Assembly (NCBI RefSeq): GCF_988243305.1
Contig: NZ_OZ547136.1
Length of the DNA: 64,000 nucleotides
Strand: one strand, 5' to 3'
This document shows, in pieces, positions 1-63,531 of the stretch (within the stretch, counting starts at the first letter, position 1; every line of letters begins with the position of its first letter). Under the pieces are notes generated by a model that saw nothing but the letters and a program-made list of their open reading frames with translations, had not been told where the DNA came from and ran no database searches. The translations under genes and the position numbers were made by a program.

Positions 1-1270
1 AGGAGCGCAGGTTAAAGCGCCAGTCGGCAAAGGTCATGCTGATGCCATCGGTGCGATCCACCGCCAGCGCCTCGCGGCTAAAATGCTGTTCGACGCGGTT
101 AATCGCCTCAACGGGTTGTGACAGTTTGCTGTTGATCTCACCGCTTGCCGGGAATGCCGCCATCCGGTCGCGCACCAGTTCGCCCAGCGTTTTTCCTTTC
201 AGGCACACCAGTTCGGCGACCAGCAGCCACGGGATCATGCCGCTGTCGCAGTAAGCGAAATCACGGAAGTAATGGTGGGCGCTCATTTCGCCACCGTAGA
301 TGGCGTCTTCCTTGCGCATACGTTCTTTAATAAAGGCGTGTCCGTTTTTCGACATCACCGGCGTGCCGCCAGCGGCAGTCACCACATCAACGGTATTCCA
401 GGAGAGACGTGGATCGTGGATGATCTTCGCGCCGGGATTTTTTTCGAGGAACGCTTCTGCCAGCAGGCCGACAATGTAGTAGCCTTCGATAAACTGCCCT
501 TTTTCGTTAAACAGGAAGCAGCGGTCAAAATCGCCATCAAAGGCAATGCCCATATCCGCGCCGTGTTTGATGACCGCATTGCGGGTGTCGTCGCGGCATT
601 CAGGCAGCAGCGGGTTAGGAATACCGTTGGGGAAATTGCCGTCCGGTGTGTTGTGTACTTTGATTAATTCCACCGGCGCGCCGAGGGCTTTAAAGCGGGC
701 TTCGATGGCGTCAACTACCGGACCCGCTGCGCCGTTCCCGGAGTTGATCACCAGCTTGAGCGGCGTGAGATTTTTGACATTGATATAACCGAACAGGTGA
801 TCAACGTAAGCGTCACGCAGGTTGATTTGCTGATAGCGACCGCGTTTGGTTTCATCGACGAGAGGAAAGTTGTTGGCTTCAGCCAGACGCTGGATGTCGC
901 GCAGTCCGGTATCACCGCTGATCGGGCGAGCCCCTTCGCGCACCAGCTTCATGCCGTTGTAATCCATCGGGTTATGGCTGGCGGTAACTTCAATGCCGCC
1001 ATCCACACCGAGATGGAACGTGGCGAAATAAATCTCTTCGGTGCCGGACATGCCAATATCCAGCACGTCGACGCCCGCATCCTGTAAACCTTTCGCCAGC
1101 GCCAGTTTTAAGGTTTCGCTGGTGAGGCGGACATCACCGCCTAACACAATGGTTTTCGGTTTGAGAAATTCGCCATAAGCGCGACCAATGCGCCAGGCAA
1201 TATCTTCATTCAGTTCTTCGCCTAATTTTCCACGAATATCATAGGCTTTAAAGCAGGTTAATTTTTTCAT
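1..1270 (-). CDS. cpsG: Phosphomannomutase (colanic acid GDP-mannose pathway); C-terminal part lies outside the window
   Basis: Minus-strand reading frame open to the window edge; start ATG at 1270 translates to [15 protein letters not shown]... with the phosphohexomutase motif TASHNP. Absent from the ORF track because there is no stop in the window. Confidence 0.9.
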
Positions 1271-1360
1271 GTCGTTACCCTTTTTCAGGCAATAGTTGGC
1301 CCTGACCGAAGCGGCCAATTTTGTTTTTGTCGTTATTTACACCGCGGTTTCGCATTCATT

Positions 1361-1549
<189 letters not shown>

Positions 1550-1550
1550 T

Positions 1551-2996
1551 TTACACCCGTCCGTAGCGATCCGCGAAGCGCACCACATCATCCTCTTCGA
1601 GATAAGAGCCGGAGCGCACTTCAATTAAATCGAGCGGAATTTTCCCCGGGTTTTCCAGGCAATGCGTCGCCCCCAGCGGAATATAAATGGACTCGTTTTC
1701 ACCAAGCAGTTTGATATCACCGTCGATAGTGACTTTTGCCGTTCCCGCGACCACCACCCAGTGTTCCGCGCGGTGATGGTGCATCTGTACCGACAAGCCC
1801 TCGCCCGGTTTCACGGTGATGCGTTTCACCTGGTAGCGGTCGCCCGCGTCGATAGAGTCATATTTGCCCCACGGACGATACACTTCGCGATGCACCCGAT
1901 GCTCATGGCGACCATCGGCTTTGATCTGCTCGACCACTTTTTTCACATCCTGCACCGCGTTACGGTCGGCAATCAGCACCGCATCTTTGGTCTGCACCAC
2001 TACCAGATCTTTCACCCCGACGGTGGTGACCAGGCCAGATTCGGCGTACACATAGCTGTTTTCAGTTTTGTGATTAATCACATCACCGTGGCAAACGTTG
2101 CCCTCGGCGGTGTGGGCGCTGATCTCCCATAATGAAGACCAGGAACCGACATCGCTCCAGCCCGCATCCATCGGCACCACAACGGCATCTGCCGTACGTT
2201 CCATGACCGCGTAATCCACCGACTCTTCCGGGCAGGCCAGAAACGCTTCTTCATCCACGCGAATAAAATCGAGATCCGGATCGACGGCGCTCATCGCTTG
2301 TTCACAGGCGTCGAGAATATCCGGGCGATATTTTTTCAGTTCTTCGAGATAGCGTCCGGCGCGGAACAGGAACATGCCGCTGTTCCAGTAATATTCGCCG
2401 CTTGCCACATAGGCCTGGGCGGTTTCCAGATTCGGTTTTTCGACAAACTGCGCCACTTCAAAGGCCACCGTATCCTGCTCACCCGCAGATACTTCACCGC
2501 GACGAATATAGCCATATCCGGTTTCAGGTAGATCCGGCACAATGCCGAAGGTCACCAGCTTGCCCGCTTCGGCATATGGCATGGCATTACGCACGGCGGT
2601 GCGAAAAGCGTCTTCATCGGCAATCACATGATCCGCCGCCAGCACCAGCATTAACGGGTCGCTCTCCGGGCTATGACGTTTTGCCGCCAGCGCCGCCAGC
2701 GCCGCCAGCGCAATGGCAGGTGCAGTGTTACGCCCTGCCGGTTCGAGAATAATGTTCTCGGTGAGTTTGTTCAGTTGGCGCAGCTGTTCCGCGACAATAA
2801 AGCGGTGCTGCTCATTGCAAATCACCACCGGGCTTTCGCACTCTACGCCTTTCAGGCGGCAGATGGTGGTTTGCAGCATGGTGAGATCGCCTTTCAGGCA
2901 TAAAAACTGCTTGGGGTAAAGTACGCGGGAAAGCGGCCATAAGCGGCTACCGGAGCCACCTGCCATCACAACTGGATAGAGTTTCGACTGCGCCAT
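1551..2996 (-). CDS. cpsB: Mannose-1-phosphate guanylyltransferase
   Basis: 481-aa [27 protein letters not shown]... with nucleotidyltransferase N-terminus and cupin-like C-terminus; position between cpsG and wcaI. Confidence 0.95.
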
Positions 2997-2998
2997 AA

Positions 2999-4222
2999 TT
3001 ATCCCCGAATATCATTTATAAATTGACGTAACACGTTCTCTTTATCGAGCGTGCGTTCGGCATATTCACGTGCCACCGTGTTGTGTTTGGGCAGCAGAAG
3101 CGCCTGACGGATCCCCGCCACCAGCGCCTCGACCGATTCCGGTTCTACGCAAACCGCAATTCCCGGAAAGGTTTCGCAAAGCTGCCCCAGTTCTGTGTGG
3201 GCTTCCGCGGTAATCACCGCGTTACCGCCTACCGCCAGAATATTGGTCAGTTTCGACGGCAATACGGCATCTGCCGCGCCGCGTTTTTGCACCACCAGAT
3301 GGCAATCGCCCATCTTCAGCAGTGCGGGTAAAGCGTCATACGATTGCAGCGGGAAAAATTGCATGTTGCGCAGTCCACGCTGCTGCGCCATTTTTTCCAG
3401 CCGCGCTTTGCCGCCGCCCTGCCCGACAATGGCAAAAATCAGCGGTTCATCGCGCAGGAGATCGGCAGCTTCAATAACGTTTTCCAGCCCCTGCTTTTCA
3501 CCAATATTGCCGGAGTAAAGAATGATTTTTTTGTTATCCGGCAGGCCAAGCTGGTTACGAAGAGCGTCAACATCGGCATCTGCAACATGCTGAAAACGGG
3601 CAATTTCCGACCAGTTGGGGAAGAAGATGACGTTTTCCGCCGCCACGCCTTTTTCGATGGCTTTATTCATCATCGAACGCGAAATCGTGGAGACGTTATC
3701 GACGTTATGCAGTCCGCTACGTTCGAACGCCGTTGCCAGCTGTGCCACTTTGCCGCCTTTGCCTTTTCCGGCAAGGCCCAGCCCCAGCATGGCGTCCACT
3801 TCGTAATCCTGAATATGCAGCACGGTACGCGCACCAGAGAGTTTCGCCAGCAGGCGCATTCCCGGCGTGCAAAACAGCGTTGGCACCACGCCAATAATGC
3901 GATCCGGCTTCCAGCGACGTTGCGCCATCAACGGGAAAAAACTGCTGACGGCAAAACTGCCGAGATGTAACAGGCGTTTCAGGGTGCTCGGCTGTTTTGG
4001 CACGTACAGCGGGCAGCGCCACACCGTAGCGGCCCCCTCTTCTCGTTTGTATCGCCAGGCGGAATAGTTCTCGCCCACCTGCCACTGCGGGTAGTAAGGT
4101 GGTGCGGTAATGACCCGCACCTCATGACCTTGTGCCGCCAGCCATTCCACCATCTCGCCGGTGTATTTGCCGATGCCGGTTAACTCCGGCGAGTAGTTAA
4201 TGCCGTAGACCAGTATTTTCAT
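2999..4222 (-). CDS. wcaI: Colanic acid biosynthesis glycosyltransferase
   Basis: 407-aa ORF in the colanic acid gene order; GT-B-type glycosyltransferase. Confidence 0.9.
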
Positions 4223-4701
4223 AATCCGGGTACTCCGGCACGCTTCTCAGCGAGAAAATAGGCGCGGCTGTTAGCGTGAACATCGTTACTGGCGAGCAGC
4301 GCGTCCGGCGTCAGCCAGCGGTAATCGTCATGCTGCTCATCCGGCAGTATCAGATCTTCTTCAGCGACTCTGAAGCGAAAACCGAGCACCACATAGTGAG
4401 TGGTGAAATCCGTGCCGGAGAAGTTATCGTCATAAAAGTGCTGCCAGACACCGTAAAACTGGCCTGCTGTTATCGGCAGACGCAGCCCCAGTTCCGCCAT
4501 CGTCAGCCGCTCGAATGCGGCTTCCAGCGTTTCGTCTTTCTGCACGCGCCCTCCCGGCACAAACCAGTAACCCTGCGCCGGGCGGTTGGTTCTTTTGCCA
4601 AGCAGAAACTCGCCGCGACTGTTCTCGACAATAAAGTCGAGAGAGACAAGCGGGGTGGAGCGCACTACCGTGGCAAAGTCTTCCTGACGTAAAAACATCA
4701 T
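4219..4701 (-). CDS. gmm: GDP-mannose mannosyl hydrolase (Nudix)
   Basis: 160-aa ORF; 4-bp overlap with wcaI; position between fcl and wcaI. Confidence 0.9.
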
Positions 4702-31561: not shown

Positions 31562-31742
31562 AAGAAATCCTTTCTTAGAGAATTATTGAGGTCCGGTATC
31601 ATACCGATTGCAATAATGAAATAAGAGCAAACGAAGAAACTTTCAGAATTAGGCCCGGCGGCGCAGAAAATTTTGCTATTCGCCTCGCAAGAACGGAGAG
31701 CCGTCGATTGACACTAAGGGCGGAGTGACATAATTTCAGGAG

Positions 31743-31878
31743 TGAGGGTTAGGGAGAGGTTTCTCCCTCCCCCTGGTGTTCTTAGTAAGCCTGGAAGCTA
31801 ATCACTAAGAGTATCTCCAGTATGATGACGTGCTTCATCATAACCCTTTCCTTATTAAAAGCCCTCTTCTCCGGGAGA
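31743..31878 (+). ncRNA. sibA: Sib antisense sRNA (antitoxin), copy 1
   Basis: Sigma70-like promoter ttgaca (31708-31713) and taattt (31731-31736); transcript fully covers the ibs ORF on the opposite strand; terminator hairpin gccctcttctccgggagagggttt. Ends approximate. Confidence 0.55.
31772..31831 (-). CDS. ibsA: Ibs type I toxin peptide, copy 1 (19 aa, variant)
   Basis: Minus-strand ORF MMKHVIILEILLVISFQAY with SD-like ggaaagg upstream; E and Q replace hydrophobic/Pro positions seen in the other two copies. Confidence 0.55.
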
Positions 31879-32077
31879 GGGTTTCCCGTTTCAGCGTCCC
31901 GCTGAAATCGTCGGCTTACCTCCTTTCGCCCTGAATGCAGTCTATCGCTAACGCGTGAACAAAATAGTTTCCTCTGTGATTATTGCGTAACGACTCGCAA
32001 AGAATATTTGCTGGCAGGATCGCAGACTGAAAAGCCTGCAGATTGACAATCTTATCGTGAAGGCATAATTTCAGGAG

Positions 32078-32215
32078 TGAGGGTAGAGCGGGGTTTCCCC
32101 CGCCCTGGTAGTCTTAGTAAGCCGGGAAGCTTATGACTAAGAGCACCACGATGATGATCCACTTCATCATGACCCTTTCCTTATTTAAGGCCCCTTCCTC
32201 GGGAGGGGCTTTCCC
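32078..32215 (+). ncRNA. Sib antisense sRNA (antitoxin), copy 2
   Basis: Promoter ttgaca (32043-32048) and taattt (32066-32071); terminator hairpin ccccttcctcgggaggggcttt. Ends approximate. Confidence 0.55.
32114..32170 (-). CDS. Ibs type I toxin peptide, copy 2 (18 aa)
   Basis: Minus-strand ORF MMKWIIIVVLLVISFPAY. Confidence 0.6.
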   Translation of the reverse strand: MMKWIIIVVLLVISFPAY

Positions 32216-32404
32216 GTTTCAGCGTCCCGCTGAAATCGTCGGCTTACCTCCTTTCGCCCTGAATGCAGTCTATCGCTAACGCGTGAACAAAATAGTTTCC
32301 TCTGTGATTATTGCGTAACGACTCGCAAAGAATATTTGCTGGCAGGATCGCAGACTGCAAAGCCTGCAGATTGACAATCTTATCGTGAAGGCATAATTTC
32401 AGGA

Positions 32405-32545
32405 GTGAGGGTAGAGCGGGGTTTCCCCCGCCCTGGTAGTCTTAGTATGCTGGGTAGCTAATCACTAAGAGCACCACGATGATGAGTAGCTTCATCATGA
32501 CCCTTTCCTTATTTATGGCCCCTTCCTCGGGAGGGGCTTTCCCGT
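32405..32545 (+). ncRNA. sibB: Sib antisense sRNA (antitoxin), copy 3
   Basis: Promoter ttgaca (32371-32376) and taattt (32394-32399); terminator hairpin ccccttcctcgggaggggcttt. Ends approximate. Confidence 0.55.
32442..32498 (-). CDS. ibsB: Ibs type I toxin peptide, copy 3 (18 aa)
   Basis: Minus-strand ORF MMKLLIIVVLLVISYPAY. Confidence 0.6.
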   Translation of the reverse strand: MMKLLIIVVLLVISYPAY

Positions 32546-32705
32546 TTCAGCGTCCCGCTGAAATCATCGGCTTACCTCCTTTCGCCATGCACGTAGTCTA
32601 TCGCTAACGCGTAGATAAAATAGTTTCATGTATTATTACTGGATGCGTGCTCGCAAATGTGCCCGCCATTCAGACGATTCCCGATAGTGTTTCATAATTC
32701 CTCCA

Positions 32706-37146: not shown

Positions 37147-40100
37147 GTGAAGTTTTTTGCCCTCTTCATTTACCGCCCGGTGGCGACGATTTTACTGTCG
37201 GTCGCCATTACCCTGTGCGGCATACTGGGCTTCCGTATGCTGCCGGTCGCCCCACTGCCGCAGGTCGATTTTCCGGTGATTATGGTCAGCGCCTCGCTGC
37301 CCGGTGCGTCACCAGAAACAATGGCGTCTTCCGTTGCCACGCCGCTGGAACGTTCGCTTGGGCGCATTGCCGGGGTCAGTGAAATGACCTCCAGCAGTTC
37401 GCTCGGCAGCACGCGCATTATTTTGCAGTTTGATTTTGACCGCGATATCAACGGCGCAGCGCGCGATGTGCAAGCGGCGATCAACGCCGCGCAAAGTTTG
37501 CTGCCCAGCGGGATGCCCAGCCGTCCGACCTATCGCAAAGCGAACCCGTCGGATGCGCCAATTATGATCCTGACGCTAACATCCGATACTTATTCGCAAG
37601 GTGAACTGTACGATTTTGCCTCGACGCAGCTGGCTCCGACGATTTCGCAAATCGACGGTGTCGGTGATGTCGATGTTGGCGGCAGCTCGCTACCTGCGGT
37701 GCGCGTCGGGCTGAACCCGCAGGCGCTGTTTAATCAGGGCGTGTCGCTGGACGATGTGCGCACCGCCATCAGCAATGCCAACGTGCGTAAACCGCAGGGG
37801 GCGCTGGAAGATGATACTCACCGCTGGCAGATCCAGACTAACGATGAACTGAAAACCGCCGCTGAATATCAGCCGTTGATTATTCATTACAACAACGGCG
37901 GCGCGGTTCGTCTGGGCGATGTGGCGACGGTGACCGACTCTGTACAAGATGTACGTAACGCCGGGATGACCAACGCCAAACCGGCTATTTTGCTGATGAT
38001 CCGCAAGCTGCCGGAAGCCAATATAATCCAGACGGTTGACAGCATCCGGGCAAAATTACCGGAGTTGCAGGAGACCATTCCGGCGGCGATTGATCTGCAA
38101 ATTGCCCAGGATCGCTCCCCCACCATTCGCGCCTCGCTGGAAGAAGTCGAGCAAACGCTGATTATCTCGGTGGCGCTGGTGATTCTGGTGGTGTTTTTAT
38201 TCCTGCGCTCGGGTCGCGCCACTATTATTCCCGCCGTTGCGGTGCCGGTTTCGCTGATTGGTACGTTTGCGGCGATGTACCTGTGCGGATTCAGTCTCAA
38301 TAACCTGTCGTTAATGGCGCTCACTATTGCTACTGGTTTCGTGGTGGATGACGCCATCGTGGTGCTGGAAAACATTGCCCGTCACCTGGAAGCGGGGATA
38401 AAACCACTACAGGCCGCACTGCAAGGTACTCGCGAAGTCGGTTTTACGGTGCTGTCGATGAGTCTTTCACTGGTGGCGGTGTTTCTGCCGCTGCTGTTGA
38501 TGGGCGGATTGCCGGGCCGACTGTTACGCGAGTTTGCCGTGACGCTTTCTGTCGCCATTGGTATTTCGTTGCTGGTTTCCCTGACGCTAACGCCGATGAT
38601 GTGTGGCTGGATGCTGAAAGCCAGCAAGCCGCGCGAGCAAAAGCGACTGCGTGGTTTTGGTCGCATGTTGGTAGCCCTGCAACAAGGCTATGGCAAGTCG
38701 CTGAAATGGGTGCTCAATCATACCCGTCTGGTGGGCGTGGTGCTGCTTGGCACCATTGCGCTGAATATCTGGTTATATATCTCGATCCCGAAAACCTTCT
38801 TCCCGGAGCAGGATACCGGCGTCCTGATGGGTGGGATACAGGCGGATCAGAGTATTTCGTTTCAGGCAATGCGCGGTAAGTTGCAGGATTTTATGAAAAT
38901 TATCCGTGACGATCCGGCGGTGGATAATGTTACCGGCTTTACCGGCGGTTCGCGGGTGAACAGCGGGATGATGTTTATCACGCTGAAGCCACGCGGCGAA
39001 CGCAGCGAAACGGCGCAGCAAATTATCGACCGTCTGCGCGTGAAGCTGGCGAAAGAACCGGGGGCGAATCTGTTCCTGATGGCGGTACAGGATATTCGCG
39101 TTGGCGGACGTCAGTCGAACGCCAGCTACCAGTACACGTTGTTATCCGACGACCTGGCGGCACTGCGCGAATGGGAGCCGAAAATCCGCAAAAAACTGGC
39201 GACATTGCCGGAACTGGCGGACGTGAACTCCGACCAGCAGGATAACGGCGCGGAGATGAATCTGGTTTACGACCGCGACACCATGGCACGGCTGGGAATC
39301 GACGTGCAAGCCGCCAACAGTCTGTTAAATAACGCCTTCGGTCAGCGGCAAATCTCGACCATTTACCAGCCGATGAACCAGTATAAAGTGGTGATGGAAG
39401 TGGATCCGCGCTATACCCAGGACATCAGCGCGCTGGAAAAAATGTTCGTTATCAATAACGAAGGAAAAGCGATCCCGCTGTCGTATTTCGCTAAATGGCA
39501 ACCGGCGAATGCTCCGCTGTCGGTGAATCATCAGGGATTATCGGCAGCCTCGACCATCTCGTTCAACCTGCCGACCGGGAAATCGCTCTCGGACGCCAGT
39601 GCAGCGATCGATCGCGCAATGACCCAGCTTGGTGTGCCTTCGACGGTGCGCGGTAGTTTTGCCGGCACGGCGCAGGTGTTCCAGGAGACGATGAACTCGC
39701 AGGTGATCCTGATTATCGCCGCCATCGCCACGGTGTATATCGTGCTGGGTATCCTTTACGAGAGTTACGTACATCCGCTGACGATTCTCTCCACCCTGCC
39801 CTCGGCGGGCGTTGGAGCGCTGCTGGCGCTGGAGCTGTTCAATGCCCCGTTCAGCCTAATCGCCCTGATAGGGATCATGCTATTAATCGGCATCGTGAAG
39901 AAAAACGCCATTATGATGGTCGATTTTGCGCTTGAAGCCCAACGGCACGGTAACCTGACGCCGCAGGAAGCTATTTTCCAGGCCTGTCTGCTGCGTTTTC
40001 GCCCGATTATGATGACTACCCTGGCGGCGCTGTTTGGTGCGCTGCCGCTGGTATTGTCAGGCGGTGACGGCTCGGAGTTGCGGCAACCATTGGGGATCAC

Positions 40101-40224
40101 CATTGTCGGCGGTCTGGTCATGAGCCAGCTTCTGACGCTGTATACCACGCCGGTGGTGTATCTCTTTTTCGACCGTCTGCGGCTGCGTTTTTCGCGTAAA
40201 CCTAAACAAACGGTAACCGAGTAA
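37147..40224 (+). CDS. mdtC: Multidrug efflux RND transporter permease subunit
   Basis: 1025-aa ORF, paralogous to mdtB; immediately follows it. Confidence 0.95.
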
Positions 40225-41640
40225 ATGACAGATCTTCCCGACAGCACCCGCTGGCAATTGTGGATTGTGGCTTTCGGCTTCTTTATGCAGTCGCTGGACA
40301 CCACCATCGTTAACACCGCGCTTCCCTCAATGGCGCAAAGTCTCGGGGAAAGTCCGTTGCATATGCACATGGTCATTGTCTCTTATGTACTGACCGTGGC
40401 GGTGATGCTGCCCGCCAGCGGCTGGCTGGCGGACAAAGTCGGCGTGCGCAATATTTTCTTTACCGCCATCGTGCTGTTTACTCTCGGTTCACTGTTTTGC
40501 GCGCTTTCCGGCACGCTGAACGAACTGTTGCTGGCACGCGCGTTACAGGGCGTTGGCGGTGCGATGATGGTGCCGGTCGGCAGGTTGACGGTGATGAAAA
40601 TCGTACCGCGCGAGCAATATATGGCGGCGATGACCTTTGTCACGTTACCCGGTCAGGTCGGGCCGCTGCTCGGTCCGGCGCTCGGCGGCCTGCTGGTGGA
40701 GTACGCCTCCTGGCACTGGATCTTTTTGATCAACATTCCGGTGGGGATTATCGGTGCGATCGCCACACTGATGTTAATGCCGAACTACACCATGCAGACG
40801 CGGCGCTTTGATCTCTTCGGCTTTTTATTGCTGGCGGTTGGCATGGCGGTATTAACCCTGGCGCTGGACGGCAGTAAAGGTACAGGTTTATCGCCGCTGG
40901 CGATTGCTGGCCTGGTCGCAGTTGGCGTGGTAGCACTGGTGCTTTATCTGCTGCACGCCAGAAATAACAACCGCGCTCTTTTCAGTCTGAAACTGTTCCG
41001 TACTCGTACCTTTTCGCTGGGCCTGGCGGGGAGTTTTGCCGGACGTATCGGTAGCGGCATGTTGCCCTTTATGACGCCGGTTTTCCTGCAAATTGGCCTT
41101 GGCTTCTCACCGTTTCATGCCGGACTGATGATGATCCCGATGGTGCTCGGCAGCATGGGGATGAAGCGAATTGTGGTACAGGTGGTGAATCGCTTTGGTT
41201 ATCGTCGGGTACTGGTGGCGACCACGCTGGGTCTGTCGCTGGTCACCCTGTTGTTTATGACTACCGCCCTGCTGGGCTGGTACTACGTTTTGCCGTTCGT
41301 CCTGTTTTTACAAGGGATGGTCAACTCGACGCGTTTCTCCTCCATGAACACCCTGACGCTGAAAGATCTCCCGGACAATCTGGCGAGCAGCGGAAACAGC
41401 CTGCTGTCGATGATTATGCAATTGTCGATGAGTATCGGCGTCACCATCGCCGGGCTGTTGCTGGGACTTTTTGGTTCGCAGCATGTCAGCGTCGACAGCG
41501 GCACCACACAAACCGTCTTTATGTACACCTGGCTTAGCATGGCGTTTATCATTGCCCTTCCGGCGTTCATCTTTGCCAGAGTGCCGAACGATACGCATCA
41601 AAATGTAGCTATTTCGCGGCGAAAAAGGAGCGCGCAATGA
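40225..41640 (+). CDS. mdtD: MFS transporter
   Basis: 471-aa polytopic ORF. Confidence 0.92.
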
Positions 41641-43040
41641 AGTTCTGGCGACCCGGTATTACCGGCAAACTGTTTCTGGCGATTTTCGCCACCTGCATTG
41701 TCTTGCTGATCAGTATGCACTGGGCGGTGCGTATCAGTTTTGAGCGTGGCTTTATTGATTACATCAAACACGGCAATGAACAGCGATTACAGCTGTTAAG
41801 TGATGCGCTTGGCGAGCAGTATGCGCAGCATGGCAACTGGCGCTTCCTGCGCAACAACGATCGCTTTGTCTTTCAGATCCTGCGTTCATTTGAACACGAT
41901 AATTCGGAAGATAAACCCGGCCCGGGTATGCCTCCGCACGGCTGGCGTACTCAGTTCTGGGTGATCGATCAAAACAACAAAGTGCTGGTTGGTCCGCGAG
42001 CGCCGATTCCACCTGACGGTACACGGCGACCCATTCTGGTCAACGGTGCGGAAGTGGGTGCGGTGATTGCCTCCCCTGTTGAGCGACTGACCCGCAATAC
42101 TGATATCAATTTCGATAAACAACAGCGGCAAACCAGCTGGCTGATTGTCGCCCTGGCTACGTTACTCGCGGCACTCGCCACCTTTCTGCTGGCGCGTGGT
42201 CTGTTGGCCCCGGTCAAACGGCTGGTGGACGGCACGCACAAACTGGCGGCGGGCGATTTCACTACCCGCGTGACACCCACCAGTGAAGATGAACTGGGCA
42301 AACTGGCGCAAGACTTCAACCAGCTTGCCAGCACGCTGGAGAAAAACCAGCAAATGCGGCGCGATTTTATGGCCGATATTTCTCACGAACTGCGTACGCC
42401 ATTAGCGGTGCTGCGCGGTGAACTGGAAGCCATTCAGGATGGCGTGCGTAAATTCACGCCGGAGACGGTGGCGTCTTTACAGGCGGAGGTCGGTACACTG
42501 ACCAAACTGGTTGACGATCTCCATCAGTTGTCGATGTCTGATGAAGGCGCTCTCGCCTATCAAAAAGCACCGGTAGATTTGATCCCACTGCTGGAAGTGG
42601 CGGGCGGCGCATTTCGCGAACGATTCGCCAGCCGTGGCCTGAAACTGCAATTTTCCCTGCCAGACAGTATTACCGTATTTGGCGATCGCGACCGTTTAAT
42701 GCAGTTATTCAATAACTTACTGGAAAACAGCCTGCGCTACACTGACAGCGGCGGTAGCCTGAAAATCTCTGCCGAGCAGCACGACAAAACGGTGCGACTG
42801 ACCTTTGCCGACAGCGCGCCGGGCGTCAGTGACGATCAGCTACAAAAATTGTTTGAACGTTTTTATCGCACCGAAGGTTCCCGCAACCGAGCCAGCGGCG
42901 GTTCCGGGCTGGGGCTGGCGATTTGCCTGAACATTGTTGAAGCACATAATGGTCGCATTATTGCTGCCCATTCGCCTTTTGGCGGGGTAAGCATTACAGT
43001 AGAGTTACCGCTGGAACGGGATTTACAGAGAGAAGTATGA
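41637..43040 (+). CDS. baeS: Envelope-stress sensor histidine kinase
   Basis: 467 aa; HAMP domain, H-box SHELRTPL and ATPase G-box GGSGLGLAI; 4-bp overlap with mdtD. Confidence 0.95.
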
Positions 43041-43759
43041 CCGAGTTACCAATCGACGAAAACACACCGCGTATTTTGATCGTGGAAGATGAACCGAAGC
43101 TGGGGCAGTTACTCATTGATTATCTGCGTGCTGCGAGCTATGCGCCAACGTTGATTAGCCACGGCGATCAGGTACTGCCATATGTACGCCAGACACCACC
43201 GGATCTGATTCTGTTGGATCTTATGCTTCCTGGCACCGATGGCCTGACGCTGTGCCGGGAGATTCGTCGTTTTTCTGACATTCCGATCGTGATGGTGACA
43301 GCAAAAATCGAAGAGATCGACCGCCTGCTGGGGCTGGAAATTGGCGCAGATGACTACATCTGCAAACCGTACAGCCCACGGGAAGTGGTAGCGCGCGTCA
43401 AAACCATTTTGCGCCGTTGCAAACCGCAACGCGAACTTCAGCAACAGGATGCCGAAAGCCCGTTGATTATCGACGAAGGTCGTTTTCAGGCTTCATGGCG
43501 CGGTAAAATGCTTGACCTGACGCCTGCGGAATTTCGTCTGTTGAAAACGCTCTCTCATGAACCAGGAAAAGTGTTCTCCCGCGAGCAATTGCTCAATCAT
43601 CTTTATGACGACTACCGCGTAGTAACCGACCGCACCATCGACAGCCACATTAAAAACCTGCGTCGCAAGCTGGAATCTCTCGACGCCGAACAGTCCTTTA
43701 TCCGTGCCGTTTACGGCGTCGGTTACCGCTGGGAAGCCGACGCCTGCCGCATCGTTTAA
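43037..43759 (+). CDS. baeR: OmpR-family response regulator
   Basis: 240 aa; receiver domain with IVEDEP...DLMLPG and winged-helix C-terminus; 4-bp overlap with baeS. Confidence 0.95.
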
Positions 43760-43938
43760 CATTTTTTCCTGCCGGAGAAGGCATTCACGCCGCATCCGGC
43801 AACATTATCCCACGCATGGTCAGCAAACTGACATTATCTCTCCGCCCTGGCAACCGCCTGAAAATCGCTCATACTTTAATCGGTAAACAGTTCTTTTAGA
43901 TGCTGTTTTCGATACGCAATTTCAATCAAGGAGTCATT

Positions 43939-44271
43939 ATGGCTGGTTGGTTTGAACTCAGTAAGAGCAGTGATAATCAGTTCCGGTTTGTGCTAAAAGC
44001 GGGCAATGGTGAGACTATCCTCACCAGCGAGCTATATACCTCAAAAGCCTCTGCGGAAAAGGGTATCGCGTCGGTGCGTAGCAACAGCCCGCAAGAAGAA
44101 CGCTATGAGAAAAAAACGGCAAGCAACGGCAAATTCTATTTCAATCTGAAAGCCGCCAATCATCAAATTATCGGCTCCAGCCAGATGTACGCCACCGCGC
44201 AATCTCGTGAAACCGGAATTGCCTCCGTTAAAGCCAATGGCACAAGCCAGACGGTGAAAGACAATACGTAA
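43939..44271 (+). CDS. yegP: UPF0339/DUF1508 family protein
   Basis: Track ORF is 123 aa; trimmed to MAGWFELSKSSDNQFRF... (110 aa) with SD aaggag 6 nt upstream. The protein is an internal duplication (two SxxxAxxxIASVxxN halves). Confidence 0.85.
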   Translation: MAGWFELSKSSDNQFRFVLKAGNGETILTSELYTSKASAEKGIASVRSNSPQEERYEKKTASNGKFYFNLKAANHQIIGSSQMYATAQSRETGIASVKANGTSQTVKDNT

Positions 44272-44418
44272 TTACGATGCCGGGCGTGGGTTGTTGGCGT
44301 CCGGCGCTTTACCAGCTCCCCCCTACAGCGCTACAATGCCCGCCCTTAAAGTGGGGGCACTCCCCTGGCCGCTTCATCAGGTGAAGCGGATCTGACCTGT
44401 CATCAGAACGAGAGAATT

Positions 44419-45780
44419 ATGTTTAAACCGGAACTCCTTTCCCCGGCGGGAACGCTGAAAAATATGCGTTACGCTTTCGCTTATGGCGCAGATGCTGTTT
44501 ATGCGGGCCAGCCGCGTTACTCCCTGCGTGTGCGCAACAACGAATTTAACCACGAAAATCTTCAGCTCGGCATCAATGAAGCCCACGCGCTGGGGAAAAA
44601 GTTTTATGTCGTGGTCAACATTGCACCGCACAACGCCAAGCTGAAAACCTTTATCCGTGACCTGAAACCGGTGGTGGAAATGGGGCCGGATGCGCTGATT
44701 ATGTCCGATCCGGGGCTGATTATGCTGGTGCGCGAGCACTTCCCTGAAATGCCGATCCATCTCTCAGTACAGGCTAACGCCGTGAACTGGGCGACGGTGA
44801 AATTCTGGCAGCAAATGGGTCTGACCCGCGTGATCCTCTCTCGCGAACTGTCACTGGAAGAGATTGAAGAGATCCGCAATCAGGTGCCAGATATGGAGAT
44901 CGAAATCTTCGTTCACGGCGCGCTGTGCATGGCCTACTCCGGTCGCTGCCTGCTCTCTGGCTATATCAACAAGCGCGACCCGAACCAGGGCACCTGCACC
45001 AACGCCTGCCGCTGGGAGTACAACGTCCAGGAAGGGAAAGAAGATGACGTTGGCAACATCGTGCACAAGTACGAGCCGATTCCGGTGCAAAATGTTGAGC
45101 CGACGCTGGGTATCGGCGCACCAACTGACAAAGTGTTTATGATCGAAGAAGCCCAGCGTCCGGGCGAGTATATGACCGCGTTTGAAGATGAGCACGGCAC
45201 TTACATCATGAACTCGAAAGATCTGCGCGCTATCGCCCACGTTGAACGCCTGACCAAAATGGGCGTGCATTCGCTGAAAATCGAAGGCCGTACTAAATCT
45301 TTCTACTATTGCGCACGCACCGCACAGGTTTACCGTAAAGCTATCGATGACGCCGCTGCGGGCAAACCGTTCGATACCAGCCTGCTGGAAACTCTGGAAG
45401 GTCTGGCGCATCGTGGCTATACCGAAGGTTTCCTGCGTCGTCATACTCACGACGATTATCAGAACTACGAATACGGTTATTCAGTTTCTGACCGCCAGCA
45501 GTTTGTTGGTGAGTTTACCGGTGAGCGCAAGGGCGACCTCGCGGCGGTAGCGGTGAAAAATAAATTCTCCGTTGGCGACAGCCTTGAGCTGATGACGCCG
45601 CAAGGGAACATTAACTTTACCCTTGAGCAGATGGAAAACGCCAAAGGCGAAGCAATGCCGGTCGCACCGGGCGATGGTTATACTGTGTGGATCCCGGTCC
45701 CGCAGGATCTTGAGCTAAATTACGCGCTGCTGATGCGTAATTTCTCCGGGGAAACCACGCGTAACCCACACGGTAAGTGA
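44419..45780 (+). CDS. yegQ: U32-family peptidase-like protein (tRNA hydroxylation, TrhP)
   Basis: 453-aa ORF MFKPELLSPAGTLKNMRYAFAYGADAVYAGQPRYSLR... with conserved Cys cluster. Confidence 0.9.
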   Translation: MFKPELLSPAGTLKNMRYAFAYGADAVYAGQPRYSLRVRNNEFNHENLQLGINEAHALGKKFYVVVNIAPHNAKLKTFIRDLKPVVEMGPDALIMSDPGLIMLVREHFPEMPIHLSVQANAVNWATVKFWQQMGLTRVILSRELSLEEIEEIRNQVPDMEIEIFVHGALCMAYSGRCLLSGYINKRDPNQGTCTNACRWEYNVQEGKEDDVGNIVHKYEPIPVQNVEPTLGIGAPTDKVFMIEEAQRPGEYMTAFEDEHGTYIMNSKDLRAIAHVERLTKMGVHSLKIEGRTKSFYYCARTAQVYRKAIDDAAAGKPFDTSLLETLEGLAHRGYTEGFLRRHTHDDYQNYEYGYSVSDRQQFVGEFTGERKGDLAAVAVKNKFSVGDSLELMTPQGNINFTLEQMENAKGEAMPVAPGDGYTVWIPVPQDLELNYALLMRNFSGETTRNPHGK

Positions 45781-45812
45781 TTAATTTCGATTATTTTTCC
45801 CGGATGGAAAAT

Positions 45813-45834
45813 TCTTAGAAACCGATCACATACA
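45813..45834 (+). promoter_or_regulatory. Candidate CRP site (class II position) for cyaR
   Basis: tcttagaaaccgatcacataca with a perfect TCACA right half, centred about 41.5 nt upstream of the inferred CyaR 5' end. Confidence 0.45.
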
Positions 45835-45864
45835 GCTGCATTTATTAAGGTTATCATCCGTTTC

Positions 45865-45951
45865 GCTGAAAAACATAACCCATAAAATGCTAGCTGTACC
45901 AGGAACCACCTCCTTAGCCTGTGTAATCTCCCTTACACGGGCTTATTTTTT
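45865..45951 (+). ncRNA. cyaR: CyaR (RyeE) Hfq-dependent sRNA
   Basis: gctgaaaaacataacccataaaatgctagctgtaccaggaaccacctccttagcctgtgtaatctcccttacacgggcttatttttt matches my recollection of CyaR, including the terminal hairpin and U-tract. Confidence 0.85.
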
Positions 45952-46109
45952 ATGCATAGGCCCTATCCCTGGTCACCGTCTTCCATTGACCACATCGATA
46001 GAATCTCCCTTCATAGCACGATGCCTTTCACGTAACGGCATCGTGCTCGCACTAGTTCCGGCTAAGCACAACCAGAACGCGCATGTTTGACGCTTACCAA
46101 AAAATATTC

Positions 46110-46427
46110 TCACTCTCCACATTTGAATGTCAGACGAGCGACGCCATGTAATCCTGCACCTTCTGTCTTCAGGTCAACTATCTGCATTTTTTTGCCCTGA
46201 GTAACACAGAAATGAGCTGCATCATTTTTTACTATATTTTCTGCACCAGATATTCTGCCCCTGGCTAAAGAAGCTTCGGCTTCGGTGTAGTATTGGTTAT
46301 CGAGTTTACGCTGAATATTACTTTTATATGCAAGACCAAATTTACCGATACTTGTCTCATCATTATGTACAGCACACCCAGACATAAGAAAAACACTAAT
46401 TAATGATATAGCAGCTATCTTTTTCAT
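46110..46427 (-). CDS. yegR: Small lipoprotein of unknown function
   Basis: Track ORF is 125 aa; trimmed to MKKIAAISLISVFLMSGCAVHND... (105 aa) with signal peptide and lipobox LMSGC. Confidence 0.85.
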   Translation of the reverse strand: MKKIAAISLISVFLMSGCAVHNDETSIGKFGLAYKSNIQRKLDNQYYTEAEASLARGRISGAENIVKNDAAHFCVTQGKKMQIVDLKTEGAGLHGVARLTFKCGE

Positions 46428-46841
46428 CTTACCTTCCCCCATTAAATACCAACGACACGCTCTGGTGTTAAAATATAATAATGGCATGATTATTATAATT
46501 GAATAGGATTATAATAAATGTTCTGTACAACATTTCCTACATAAGTAGGAATTACAAACATGAAGCCCTGCCCAGGTATCCCCATGAGGGCTTTAATATA
46601 TTTAGAATAAGATAGTGAAGATGCCACTGTTTAGTTGAATATTAGGTATATGCTCTTTTTTGAAATTTACCGGTGGCTACCGTTAACATTCACTGTCCCC
46701 ATTGCAAGCTCCTGGTGGTAACCACTGAATCCTCCATACTTGAACTGACTTTTTATCCTCCGACTTTCATCCTGTTCTGACTCCACCTTTTCTTTTCTGC
46801 TCTACACTATCTACAGACCAATCATAAAGGCACATACGATC

Positions 46842-47741
46842 ATGGCAGAATTTCCCGCCAGCTTACTGATTCTTAATGGCAAAAGTACTGACAATTTACC
46901 ATTGCGCGAAGCAATTATGCTGTTGCGTGAGGAAGGAATGACGATCCATGTGCGGGTCACCTGGGAGAAAGGCGATGCCGCACGATATGTAGAGGAGGCC
47001 CGGAAGTTGGGCGTCGCAACGGTGATTGCCGGTGGTGGCGATGGCACCATTAATGAAGTTTCTACGGCGTTGATTCAGTGTGAGGGGGATGACATACCCG
47101 CGCTGGGAATTTTGCCATTAGGAACCGCCAATGATTTTGCCACCAGTGTAGGGATTCCTGAGGCACTGGATAAGGCGCTGAAACTGGCAATTGCCGGTAA
47201 CGCCATTGCGATAGATATGGCGCAGGTCAACAAACAAACCTGTTTTATTAATATGGCGACAGGCGGGTTTGGGACGCGTATTACCACAGAAACGCCGGAA
47301 AAATTAAAAGCCGCGCTGGGTGGCGTCTCTTACATCATTCATGGCTTAATGCGCATGGACACTCTGCAACCGGACCGTTGTGAGATCCGCGGTGAAAACT
47401 TTCACTGGCAAGGTGACGCCCTGGTCATTGGTATTGGTAACGGGCGTCAGGCCGGTGGCGGTCAACAATTGTGCCCGAACGCGTTAATTAACGATGGCTT
47501 GCTGCAACTGCGCATTTTTACCGGCGATGAAATTCTTCCGGCTCTCGTATCAACCTTAAAATCTGACGAAGATAACCCGAATATTATCGAAGGCGCTTCG
47601 TCGTGGTTTGATATACAAGCCCCACACGAAATCACTTTTAATCTTGATGGCGAACCGTTGAGCGGACAAAACTTTCATATTGAAATACTTCCGGCGGCGT
47701 TGCGTTGTCGATTACCACCGGATTGTCCATTATTGCGTTAA
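46842..47741 (+). CDS. yegS: Lipid kinase, diacylglycerol-kinase catalytic domain family
   Basis: 299-aa [35 protein letters not shown]... with GGDGT motif. Confidence 0.92.
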
Positions 47742-47768
47742 TCAAACTATTCTCTCTTGAACCAGGGA

Positions 47769-47815
47769 GAAACAGTTATGCCGGATGCGGTATAAACACC
47801 TTATCCGGCCTACTG
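47769..47815. repeat. REP palindromic element between yegS and gatR
   Basis: atgccggatgcggtataaacaccttatccggcctactg. Confidence 0.7.
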
Positions 47816-47822
47816 AACAATA

Positions 47823-48602
47823 CTACACCGTAATTAATTTCACCCGTGTCTTCTGCAATGCCAGTTTATCCACCTCTGACACGGCATCATCGGTAATAAT
47901 AATGTCGATTTTTTCGATTGGCAGTACCTGATTAAAACCGCGACGATTAAATTTCGATGAATCGAGAACGGCAATCACTTTATTTGCGGCTGTGACCATC
48001 GCCCCGCTAATCGAATAACCTTCATTAAAGGTCGTAATACCATTAACCGCATCAATACCATCAGCACCGACAAACATTAAATCGGCATTAATATCCTGCA
48101 ATGAACGCTCGGCAATGGAACCATGCATCGAGCGTGTTTTATGGCGGACGGTCCCACCACAGACGACCAGAGTAATGTCTTTATTTTCGGAAAGGGCAAA
48201 CGCCGCCGGGAGACTGTTGGTAATCACCGTGATATTTTTGGCGGTCATTAAACCTTCGGCGATAAGCATTGTGGTACTTCCGCTGTCGAGAATAACGGTC
48301 ATCCCTTCGTGGATCATTTTGACTGCCGCCTGCGCTATTCTGTTTTTTGGCGCACTGGCGAGCTGAAATCGCTCTTTAAACCCAACTTCCTGGGTCTCGG
48401 TTTCACTATTACCGGACATTATTTTCGCCGCACCGCCATGAAAGCGCGTAACTACGCCTTTTTGTTCGAGAAAGCGCAAATCGGCACGGATTGTCGCTTC
48501 CGAGGCAGCAAATACTCCCGCCAGATCCTGAACAAGCACGGTTCCCTGTTCATTCACTAATTGGATGATCTTATTCCTTCGCTCGAATGAATTCATCGTC
48601 AT
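47823..48602 (-). CDS. gatR: DeoR-family transcriptional repressor of the galactitol operon (intact)
   Basis: 259-aa uninterrupted ORF; N-terminal HTH and C-terminal DeoR sugar-binding domain; immediately downstream of gatD. Confidence 0.88.
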   Translation of the reverse strand: MTMNSFERRNKIIQLVNEQGTVLVQDLAGVFAASEATIRADLRFLEQKGVVTRFHGGAAKIMSGNSETETQEVGFKERFQLASAPKNRIAQAAVKMIHEGMTVILDSGSTTMLIAEGLMTAKNITVITNSLPAAFALSENKDITLVVCGGTVRHKTRSMHGSIAERSLQDINADLMFVGADGIDAVNGITTFNEGYSISGAMVTAANKVIAVLDSSKFNRRGFNQVLPIEKIDIIITDDAVSEVDKLALQKTRVKLITV

Positions 48603-62706: not shown

Positions 62707-63531
62707 ATGACCGAATTTACAACTCTTCTTCAGCAAGGAAACGCCTGGTTCTTCATCCCCAGCGCCATCTTACTTGGTGCGCTTCATGGCCTGGAACCAG
62801 GGCACTCAAAAACGATGATGGCGGCGTTTATCATCGCCATCAAAGGCACCATTAAACAGGCGGTGATGCTCGGACTGGCAGCAACCATTTCGCATACCGC
62901 AGTGGTCTGGTTGATTGCCTTTGGCGGGATGGTGATCAGCAAGCGCTTTACTGCTCAATCAGCAGAACCGTGGCTCCAGTTGATTTCCGCAGTGATCATT
63001 ATTGGCACCGCGTTCTGGATGTTCTGGCGTACCTGGCGCGGCGAACGAAACTGGCTGGAGAATATGCACGAGCATGATCATGAGCATCATCACCACGATC
63101 ACGAAGATCACCACGACCATGGACATCATCACCATCACGAACATGGCGAGTATCAGGATGCCCATGCACGAGCCCATGCCAATGACATTAAACGACGCTT
63201 TGATGGTAGAGAGGTCACCAACTGGCAAATTTTGTTATTTGGCTTAACCGGTGGCCTTATCCCCTGCCCGGCAGCAATTACCGTGCTGTTGATTTGCATT
63301 CAGTTGAAAGCCCTGACACTGGGCGCAACACTGGTCGTCAGTTTCAGCATTGGCCTGGCGTTAACGCTGGTCACCGTAGGCGTTGGCGCAGCAATCAGCG
63401 TTCAGCAGGTCGCAAAACGCTGGAGCGGATTTAACACTCTCGCTAAACGCGCCCCCTATTTTTCCAGTCTGTTGATTGGCTTAGTTGGTGTGTATATGGG
63501 CGTACATGGCTTCATGGGCATAATGCGATAA
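62707..63531 (+). CDS. rcnA: Nickel/cobalt efflux permease with His-rich cytoplasmic loop
   Basis: 274-aa ORF; central HEHDHEHHHHDHEDHHDHGHHHHHEHGE loop between TM segments. Confidence 0.95.
   Translation: MTEFTTLLQQGNAWFFIPSAILLGALHGLEPGHSKTMMAAFIIAIKGTIKQAVMLGLAATISHTAVVWLIAFGGMVISKRFTAQSAEPWLQLISAVIIIGTAFWMFWRTWRGERNWLENMHEHDHEHHHHDHEDHHDHGHHHHHEHGEYQDAHARAHANDIKRRFDGREVTNWQILLFGLTGGLIPCPAAITVLLICIQLKALTLGATLVVSFSIGLALTLVTVGVGAAISVQQVAKRWSGFNTLAKRAPYFSSLLIGLVGVYMGVHGFMGIMR

Follow-up and report, generated by a model that had tools for sequence, protein, structure and literature searches.

The 64-kb stretch of DNA analysed here (the window) carries near its start the genes wcaI, cpsB and cpsG (Table 1), and their order, wcaI-cpsB-cpsG, is that of Escherichia coli K-12 and of all the loci that we fetched. 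The product of cpsB, whose extent, strand and length of 481 residues agree with the open reading frame given in a preliminary description of this DNA, attains 1107.4 bits against the cut-off of 859 for the NCBIfam equivalog NF012004 (mannose-1-phosphate guanyltransferase), with residues 1-481 aligning to positions 1-478 of the profile. It displays the two-part architecture of CpsB, namely an N-terminal NTP_transferase domain and a C-terminal mannose-6-phosphate isomerase/cupin domain (PF00483, PF12804, PF22640, PF01050 and PF07883), and a cpsB annotation is present under all E. coli matches of the locus. Nothing sets the cpsB of the window apart from the ordinary run of the CpsB/ManC equivalog family.

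Table 1. Features of the window considered in this study
Feature	Position	Strand	Basis or remarks
cpsG (phosphomannomutase), 5' part, truncated by the start of the window; lies downstream of cpsB	1..1270	-	Translated start; PGM_PMM domains on the source contig
cpsB-cpsG spacer	1271..1550
88-bp tandem repeat in the spacer	1361..1549		2.1 copies, 99% identity
cpsB (manC of the colanic-acid cluster), mannose-1-phosphate guanylyltransferase, 481 aa including a 3-residue insertion	1551..2996	-	ORF and NF012004
Perfect 9-bp tandem array, 3.2 copies	2683..2711	-	Plus strand GCCGCCAGC; coding strand GCGCTGGCG = Ala-Leu-Ala; codons 96-104 and first 2 bases of Ala105
Repeat unit, third ALA in coding direction	2683..2691	-
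Repeat unit, second ALA	2692..2700	-
Repeat unit, first ALA	2701..2709	-
wcaI (colanic acid fucosyltransferase), immediately upstream of cpsB	2999..4222	-	ORF; identical neighbour in all fetched E. coli loci
328-bp tandem repeat	31729..32627		2.7 copies, 91% identity
Imperfect tandem repeats	63070..63144		Periods of 9, 12 and 18 bp

Within cpsB the unit gccgccagc stands three times in perfect tandem over 27 bases, and the next two bases (gc) carry the match on to position 2711, an array that Tandem Repeats Finder reports with period 9, 3.2 copies and 100% matches. On the coding strand the unit reads GCG CTG GCG. This is the sole perfect tandem repeat in the window with at least three copies and a unit of 4-15 nt, and with independent bases chance alone would yield about 1e-6 arrays of this kind in 64 kb. 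The preliminary description had reported this perfect triple repeat inside the minus-strand cpsB, as both the sequence and Tandem Repeats Finder confirm; the 12-residue peptide of four LAA that it gave as the translation is absent, the 27 bases amounting to nine residues and the protein having three LAA. The three units are identical, and any of them may be the extra one.

Other repeats of the window include one in the spacer next to cpsB, with an 88-bp unit which looks like a palindromic unit of the REP/BIME type. The length of this spacer is exactly 104 + 88n bases, with 104 in K-12, 192 in most of the fetched loci, 280 in the window and strain MS1679, and 368 in 2020N21-246; this copy-number polymorphism is larger and more variable than the 9-bp one. 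The 328-bp repeat resembles the Sib/Ibs (QUAD) type I toxin-antitoxin repeats, which lie near mdtA in K-12. The imperfect repeats towards the end of the window show 74-90% matches, and their 18-bp consensus, CATCACCACGATCACGAA, would encode a His-rich peptide on the plus strand.

The exact 481-residue protein of the window is recorded at NCBI as HHS8764768.1 (TPA, Escherichia coli), encoded on DBJUBT010000028.1 of GCA_052135155.1 (75,818 bp), and is also encoded on Logan contigs, one of them from ERR15423954. The NCBI locus has 0 mismatches to the window over 4,996 overlapping bases, while the Logan locus is contained in the window without any difference. That the third unit might be an artefact of assembly or sequencing could be argued from the record of this exact protein on only three contigs; however, since two separately made assemblies carry the exact allele, identical to the window across cpsB, an artefact is unlikely. 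The identical 27-nt array is moreover present in 12 complete genomes from many laboratories, and arrays of 29 nt are far shorter than any sequencing read and give an assembler no cause to miscount, so that we grant this explanation hardly any weight. The window is E. coli DNA. With respect to the background of the strain, the 8 kb of housekeeping genes at positions 40000-48000 (mdtD-baeSR-yegQ) show 98.0-98.7% identity to the best-listed complete E. coli genomes, and one record falls in the band of at least 99% identity, outside the best matches listed; judged by this comparison, the source lineage seems to be poorly represented among complete genomes.

The cpsB gene of K-12 MG1655 (b2049) comprises 1437 nt encoding 478 residues and has two units; the 478 residues given for the reference protein in the preliminary description were correct, and the NF012004 profile likewise has 478 positions. 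To survey copy number across the species we used a 67-nt probe comprising three units and 40 nt of flank, which matched 4,358 complete E. coli genomes. Three units were found in 12 of these, the remaining matches listed for this probe beginning at the second unit. All 12 have a cpsB of 1446 nt (481 aa) with exactly three units, and no four-unit allele occurs among these full-coverage matches of the three-unit probe, every one being exactly 1446 nt long. A 57-nt one-unit probe matched 4,127 complete E. coli genomes, two of which have a single unit in an intact open reading frame of 1428 nt (475 aa). Two units are present in more than 99.6% of the probe-matched genomes, across all haplotypes, and copy-number variants account for about 0.3% (14 genomes among the 4,127-4,358 matched). 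Known and synthetic alleles, run locally with the DUST filter on, served to validate both probe designs; a four-unit probe was not used, as DUST masking lost some alleles in a local trial. About 300 cpsB-bearing genomes escaped the short probes (4,663-4,692 matches to the gene versus 4,358 and 4,127 to the probes), and all these counts are lower bounds. With a 201-nt megablast query nearly all E. coli matches were 9 bases shorter than the query; its ranking suggested six three-unit alleles, which is too few, as those lying on the opposite strand of their record were aligned from query base 9 and ranked below two-unit matches although identical.

Other variants of cpsB and its surroundings were also noted. 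In L004 (NZ_CM142775.1) the product has 479 residues, a third length class, owing to a 3-nt duplication near nucleotide 223 of the coding sequence (CTGAAC to CTGATGAAC), which inserts a Met some 20 codons upstream of the LAA repeat and is another small in-frame indel of the slippage type. One of the one-unit genomes, strain 673 (NZ_CP141196.1, L016; 475 aa), has an adjacent cpsG annotated as an incomplete pseudogene, and its colanic-acid pathway may already be defective. Three CpsB-like proteins from other E. coli or enterobacterial assemblies (P0016, P0017 and P0018, of 682, 638 and 529 residues) contain large internal duplications, and the end of P0017 resembles the O-antigen ManC, which suggests recombination between cpsB/manC paralogues or chimeras of assembly.

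The direction of change can be read from the outgroups. All 25 outgroup CpsB/ManC proteins of the Enterobacterales show the two-unit form or a point variant of it; these were drawn from, among others, Salmonella, Citrobacter, Enterobacter, Cronobacter, Siccibacter, Yokenella, Kosakonia, Franconibacter, Atlantibacter, Buttiauxella, Erwinia and Xenorhabdus, and include the O-antigen ManC paralogue of E. coli. Several orthologues of 480 or 481 residues (Salmonella, Siccibacter, Buttiauxella and others) were considered as further bearers of a third unit and rejected, their extra residues belonging to one or other terminus or to a loop around residue 170. The preliminary description had been open to the objection that reference CpsB sequences might carry three units themselves; they do not, with three units in 12 of 4,358 E. 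coli genomes and in 0 of 25 outgroup proteins. Because of the uniform outgroups and the pattern of sister alleles described below, these comparisons show two units to be the ancestral state and three a derived gain. The converse polarity, in which three units are ancestral and the common two-unit allele is a deletion, has nothing for it beyond the formal symmetry of an indel, and is effectively refuted by the two units of every outgroup protein and by their prevalence in the E. coli genomes across all haplotypes.

Four haplotypes, 23-50 substitutions apart, account for the three-unit alleles. One is that of the window, L001 and L006 are two more, and the fourth (L002) is common to ten genomes whose cpsB nucleotide sequence is identical (WP_000079306.1). 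The preliminary description had proposed that one extra in-frame unit was gained, and this is borne out by the nearest two-unit alleles, which lie 0 substitutions from the ten-genome group (L020 and the other matches listed at 99.4%, or 1437/1446), 2 from L006 (L021) and 5 from the window (L003, strain MS1679). All five substitutions between the window and L003 are synonymous and fall at positions 1104-1419 of the coding sequence, more than 780 bases from the repeat, and the two proteins are identical after removal of one LAA. The two one-unit alleles are on different backgrounds, 32 substitutions apart, and together with the four three-unit haplotypes they span the same range of 23-50 substitutions. 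Alleles with one, two and three units are 1428, 1437 and 1446 nt long, differing in length by whole units. On these sequence comparisons one unit was gained independently at least three, probably four, times and lost twice; the independent origin of L001 is less certain, as it has no close two-unit sister (about 26 substitutions).

Alternatively, the three-unit allele could have a single origin and owe its distribution over the E. coli lineages to homologous recombination instead of repeated slippage. The 115-137 nt around the repeat are indeed identical in the window, L001 and L006, and cpsB adjoins the O-antigen region, which is prone to recombination. However, haplotype-specific SNPs of the L002 lineage, at 7 nt on the upstream side of the array and 23 nt on its downstream side, restrict any imported tract to at most 55 nt there, and the corresponding limit in the other pairs is 115-137 nt, all far below the usual recombination tracts. 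Since haplotype-specific SNPs thus confine the shared tract to at most 55-137 nt, the movement of one three-unit segment between lineages is improbable, and we give it little credence. Each three-unit allele also otherwise agrees with its own two-unit sister, and the one-unit alleles on two backgrounds indicate that the tract changes both ways.

We favour repeated slippage. On this reading the cpsB of an E. coli strain with a pre-existing two-unit 9-bp direct repeat gained one copy, going from two to three, most likely by slipped-strand mispairing during replication; the gain is in frame and extends the protein from 478 to 481 residues by Leu-Ala-Ala (equivalently Ala-Leu-Ala), which would fall in the helix after the invariant motif NTAPA of the nucleotidyltransferase domain. 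Perfect direct repeats, whole-unit changes, unchanged flanks and recurrence are together the signature of slipped-strand mispairing, and it is because the tract is a perfect short direct repeat with exact one-unit changes, unchanged flanks and recurrence in both directions that we infer this mechanism as the most likely one. Taken as a whole, a slippage-type gain that is derived, rare, recurrent, probably near-neutral and without switching is the best explanation, to which we assign a probability of about 0.9. The array is an ordinary, low-rate, in-frame short-tandem-repeat polymorphism.

As for the protein, the repeat directly follows the residues N90-T91-A92-P93-A94, which are invariant in an alignment of 26 sequences. 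When the protein is aligned with its homologues of solved structure, 2X5S of Thermotoga maritima and 2QH5 of Helicobacter pylori, the LAA segment is exactly where gaps appear, so that the family is not uniform in the length of this part of the fold. An AlphaFold2 model from the 26-sequence alignment places residues 94-108 in one helix; the model is poor overall (mean pLDDT 56.7) and was used solely for the secondary structure of the N-terminal domain, with 10-residue blocks averaging 60 (residues 91-100) and 83 (residues 101-110). It lends moderate support to the prediction that a third unit makes this helix longer by about one turn. A single 481-residue CpsB allele is common to ten isolates from nine countries, whose WcaI and CpsG proteins are identical too, so the allele is stably inherited and apparently tolerated. 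The insertion is probably tolerated functionally, the change in copy number is probably neutral or nearly so, and the 481-residue form is predicted, indirectly from its intact reading frame, length-variable segment and persisting lineage, to synthesize GDP-mannose.

A more consequential possibility is that the tract is under selection as a tuning or contingency repeat, with the supply of GDP-mannose and the production of colanic acid depending on its copy number. One, two or three LAA would then alter the length of the helix by NTAPA and hence the activity of CpsB, GDP-mannose and the output of colanic acid, a chain of effects that we consider very doubtful. The recurrent gains and losses, the presence of one 481-residue lineage in nine countries and the position of the repeat straight after an invariant motif are compatible with such tuning, and if it were true the recurrent gains and the spread over nine countries would reflect selection, for instance phage or host pressure on mucoidy. 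Against this, the tract has only one to three units, with variants in about 0.3% of genomes, and a unit divisible by three permits no on/off switching of frame; the identical CpsB, WcaI and CpsG proteins of the ten-genome lineage fit clonal hitch-hiking, and a literature search found no link of cpsB length to a phenotype. Consequently we regard selection for copy number as very unlikely, and near-neutral slippage remains the preferred reading.

Repeat copy number explains why the annotated length of CpsB in some E. coli genomes is 481 or 475 residues instead of 478, and such differences in length are real alleles, not errors of annotation. The 481-residue allele, being common to ten complete genomes, could serve as a minor lineage marker. 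Otherwise the locus is a small, clean case of in-frame slippage that has recurred at a repeat of a housekeeping polysaccharide gene, and its biological weight is very small.

Among known systems the closest is the CpsB/ManC of K-12 itself (b2049, NP_416553.1), which is the same gene with the same wcaI-cpsB-cpsG synteny and full-length domain architecture, and differs from the window protein by five amino-acid substitutions and the insertion, having two ALA/LAA units (478 aa) whereas the window has three (481 aa). The 481-residue CpsB proteins WP_000079306.1, WP_101360998.1 and WP_236323814.1 of RefSeq have an identical three-unit array at the same position as the window, but their nucleotide backgrounds are different, with 23-42 substitutions relative to the window allele. 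Phase-variable contingency loci, such as those of Neisseria and Haemophilus, likewise have a repeat tract in a gene related to surface polysaccharides. In contrast to these, the cpsB tract is short, its frame never shifts and it has no on/off states: the 475-, 478- and 481-residue forms are all intact open reading frames, and instead of a long, highly variable tract there are one to three units, with exactly three in all ten isolates of the lineage. With a unit length divisible by three and a range of one to three copies, the tract is no frame-shifting phase-variation switch, an interpretation that we reject, and cpsB is not a member of this class. The loci used in MLVA typing are also much more mutable than the cpsB tract, with its copy number of 1-3 and variants at about 0.3%. 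A literature search found no description of this polymorphism. The tract shares with coding VNTR/SSR polymorphisms in general the perfect head-to-tail units, the gain and loss of whole units between unchanged flanks and the homoplasy across lineages, all of which we observed here; since RefSeq already has several accessions for the 481-residue CpsB, we see in the polymorphism a minor new instance of a well-known kind.
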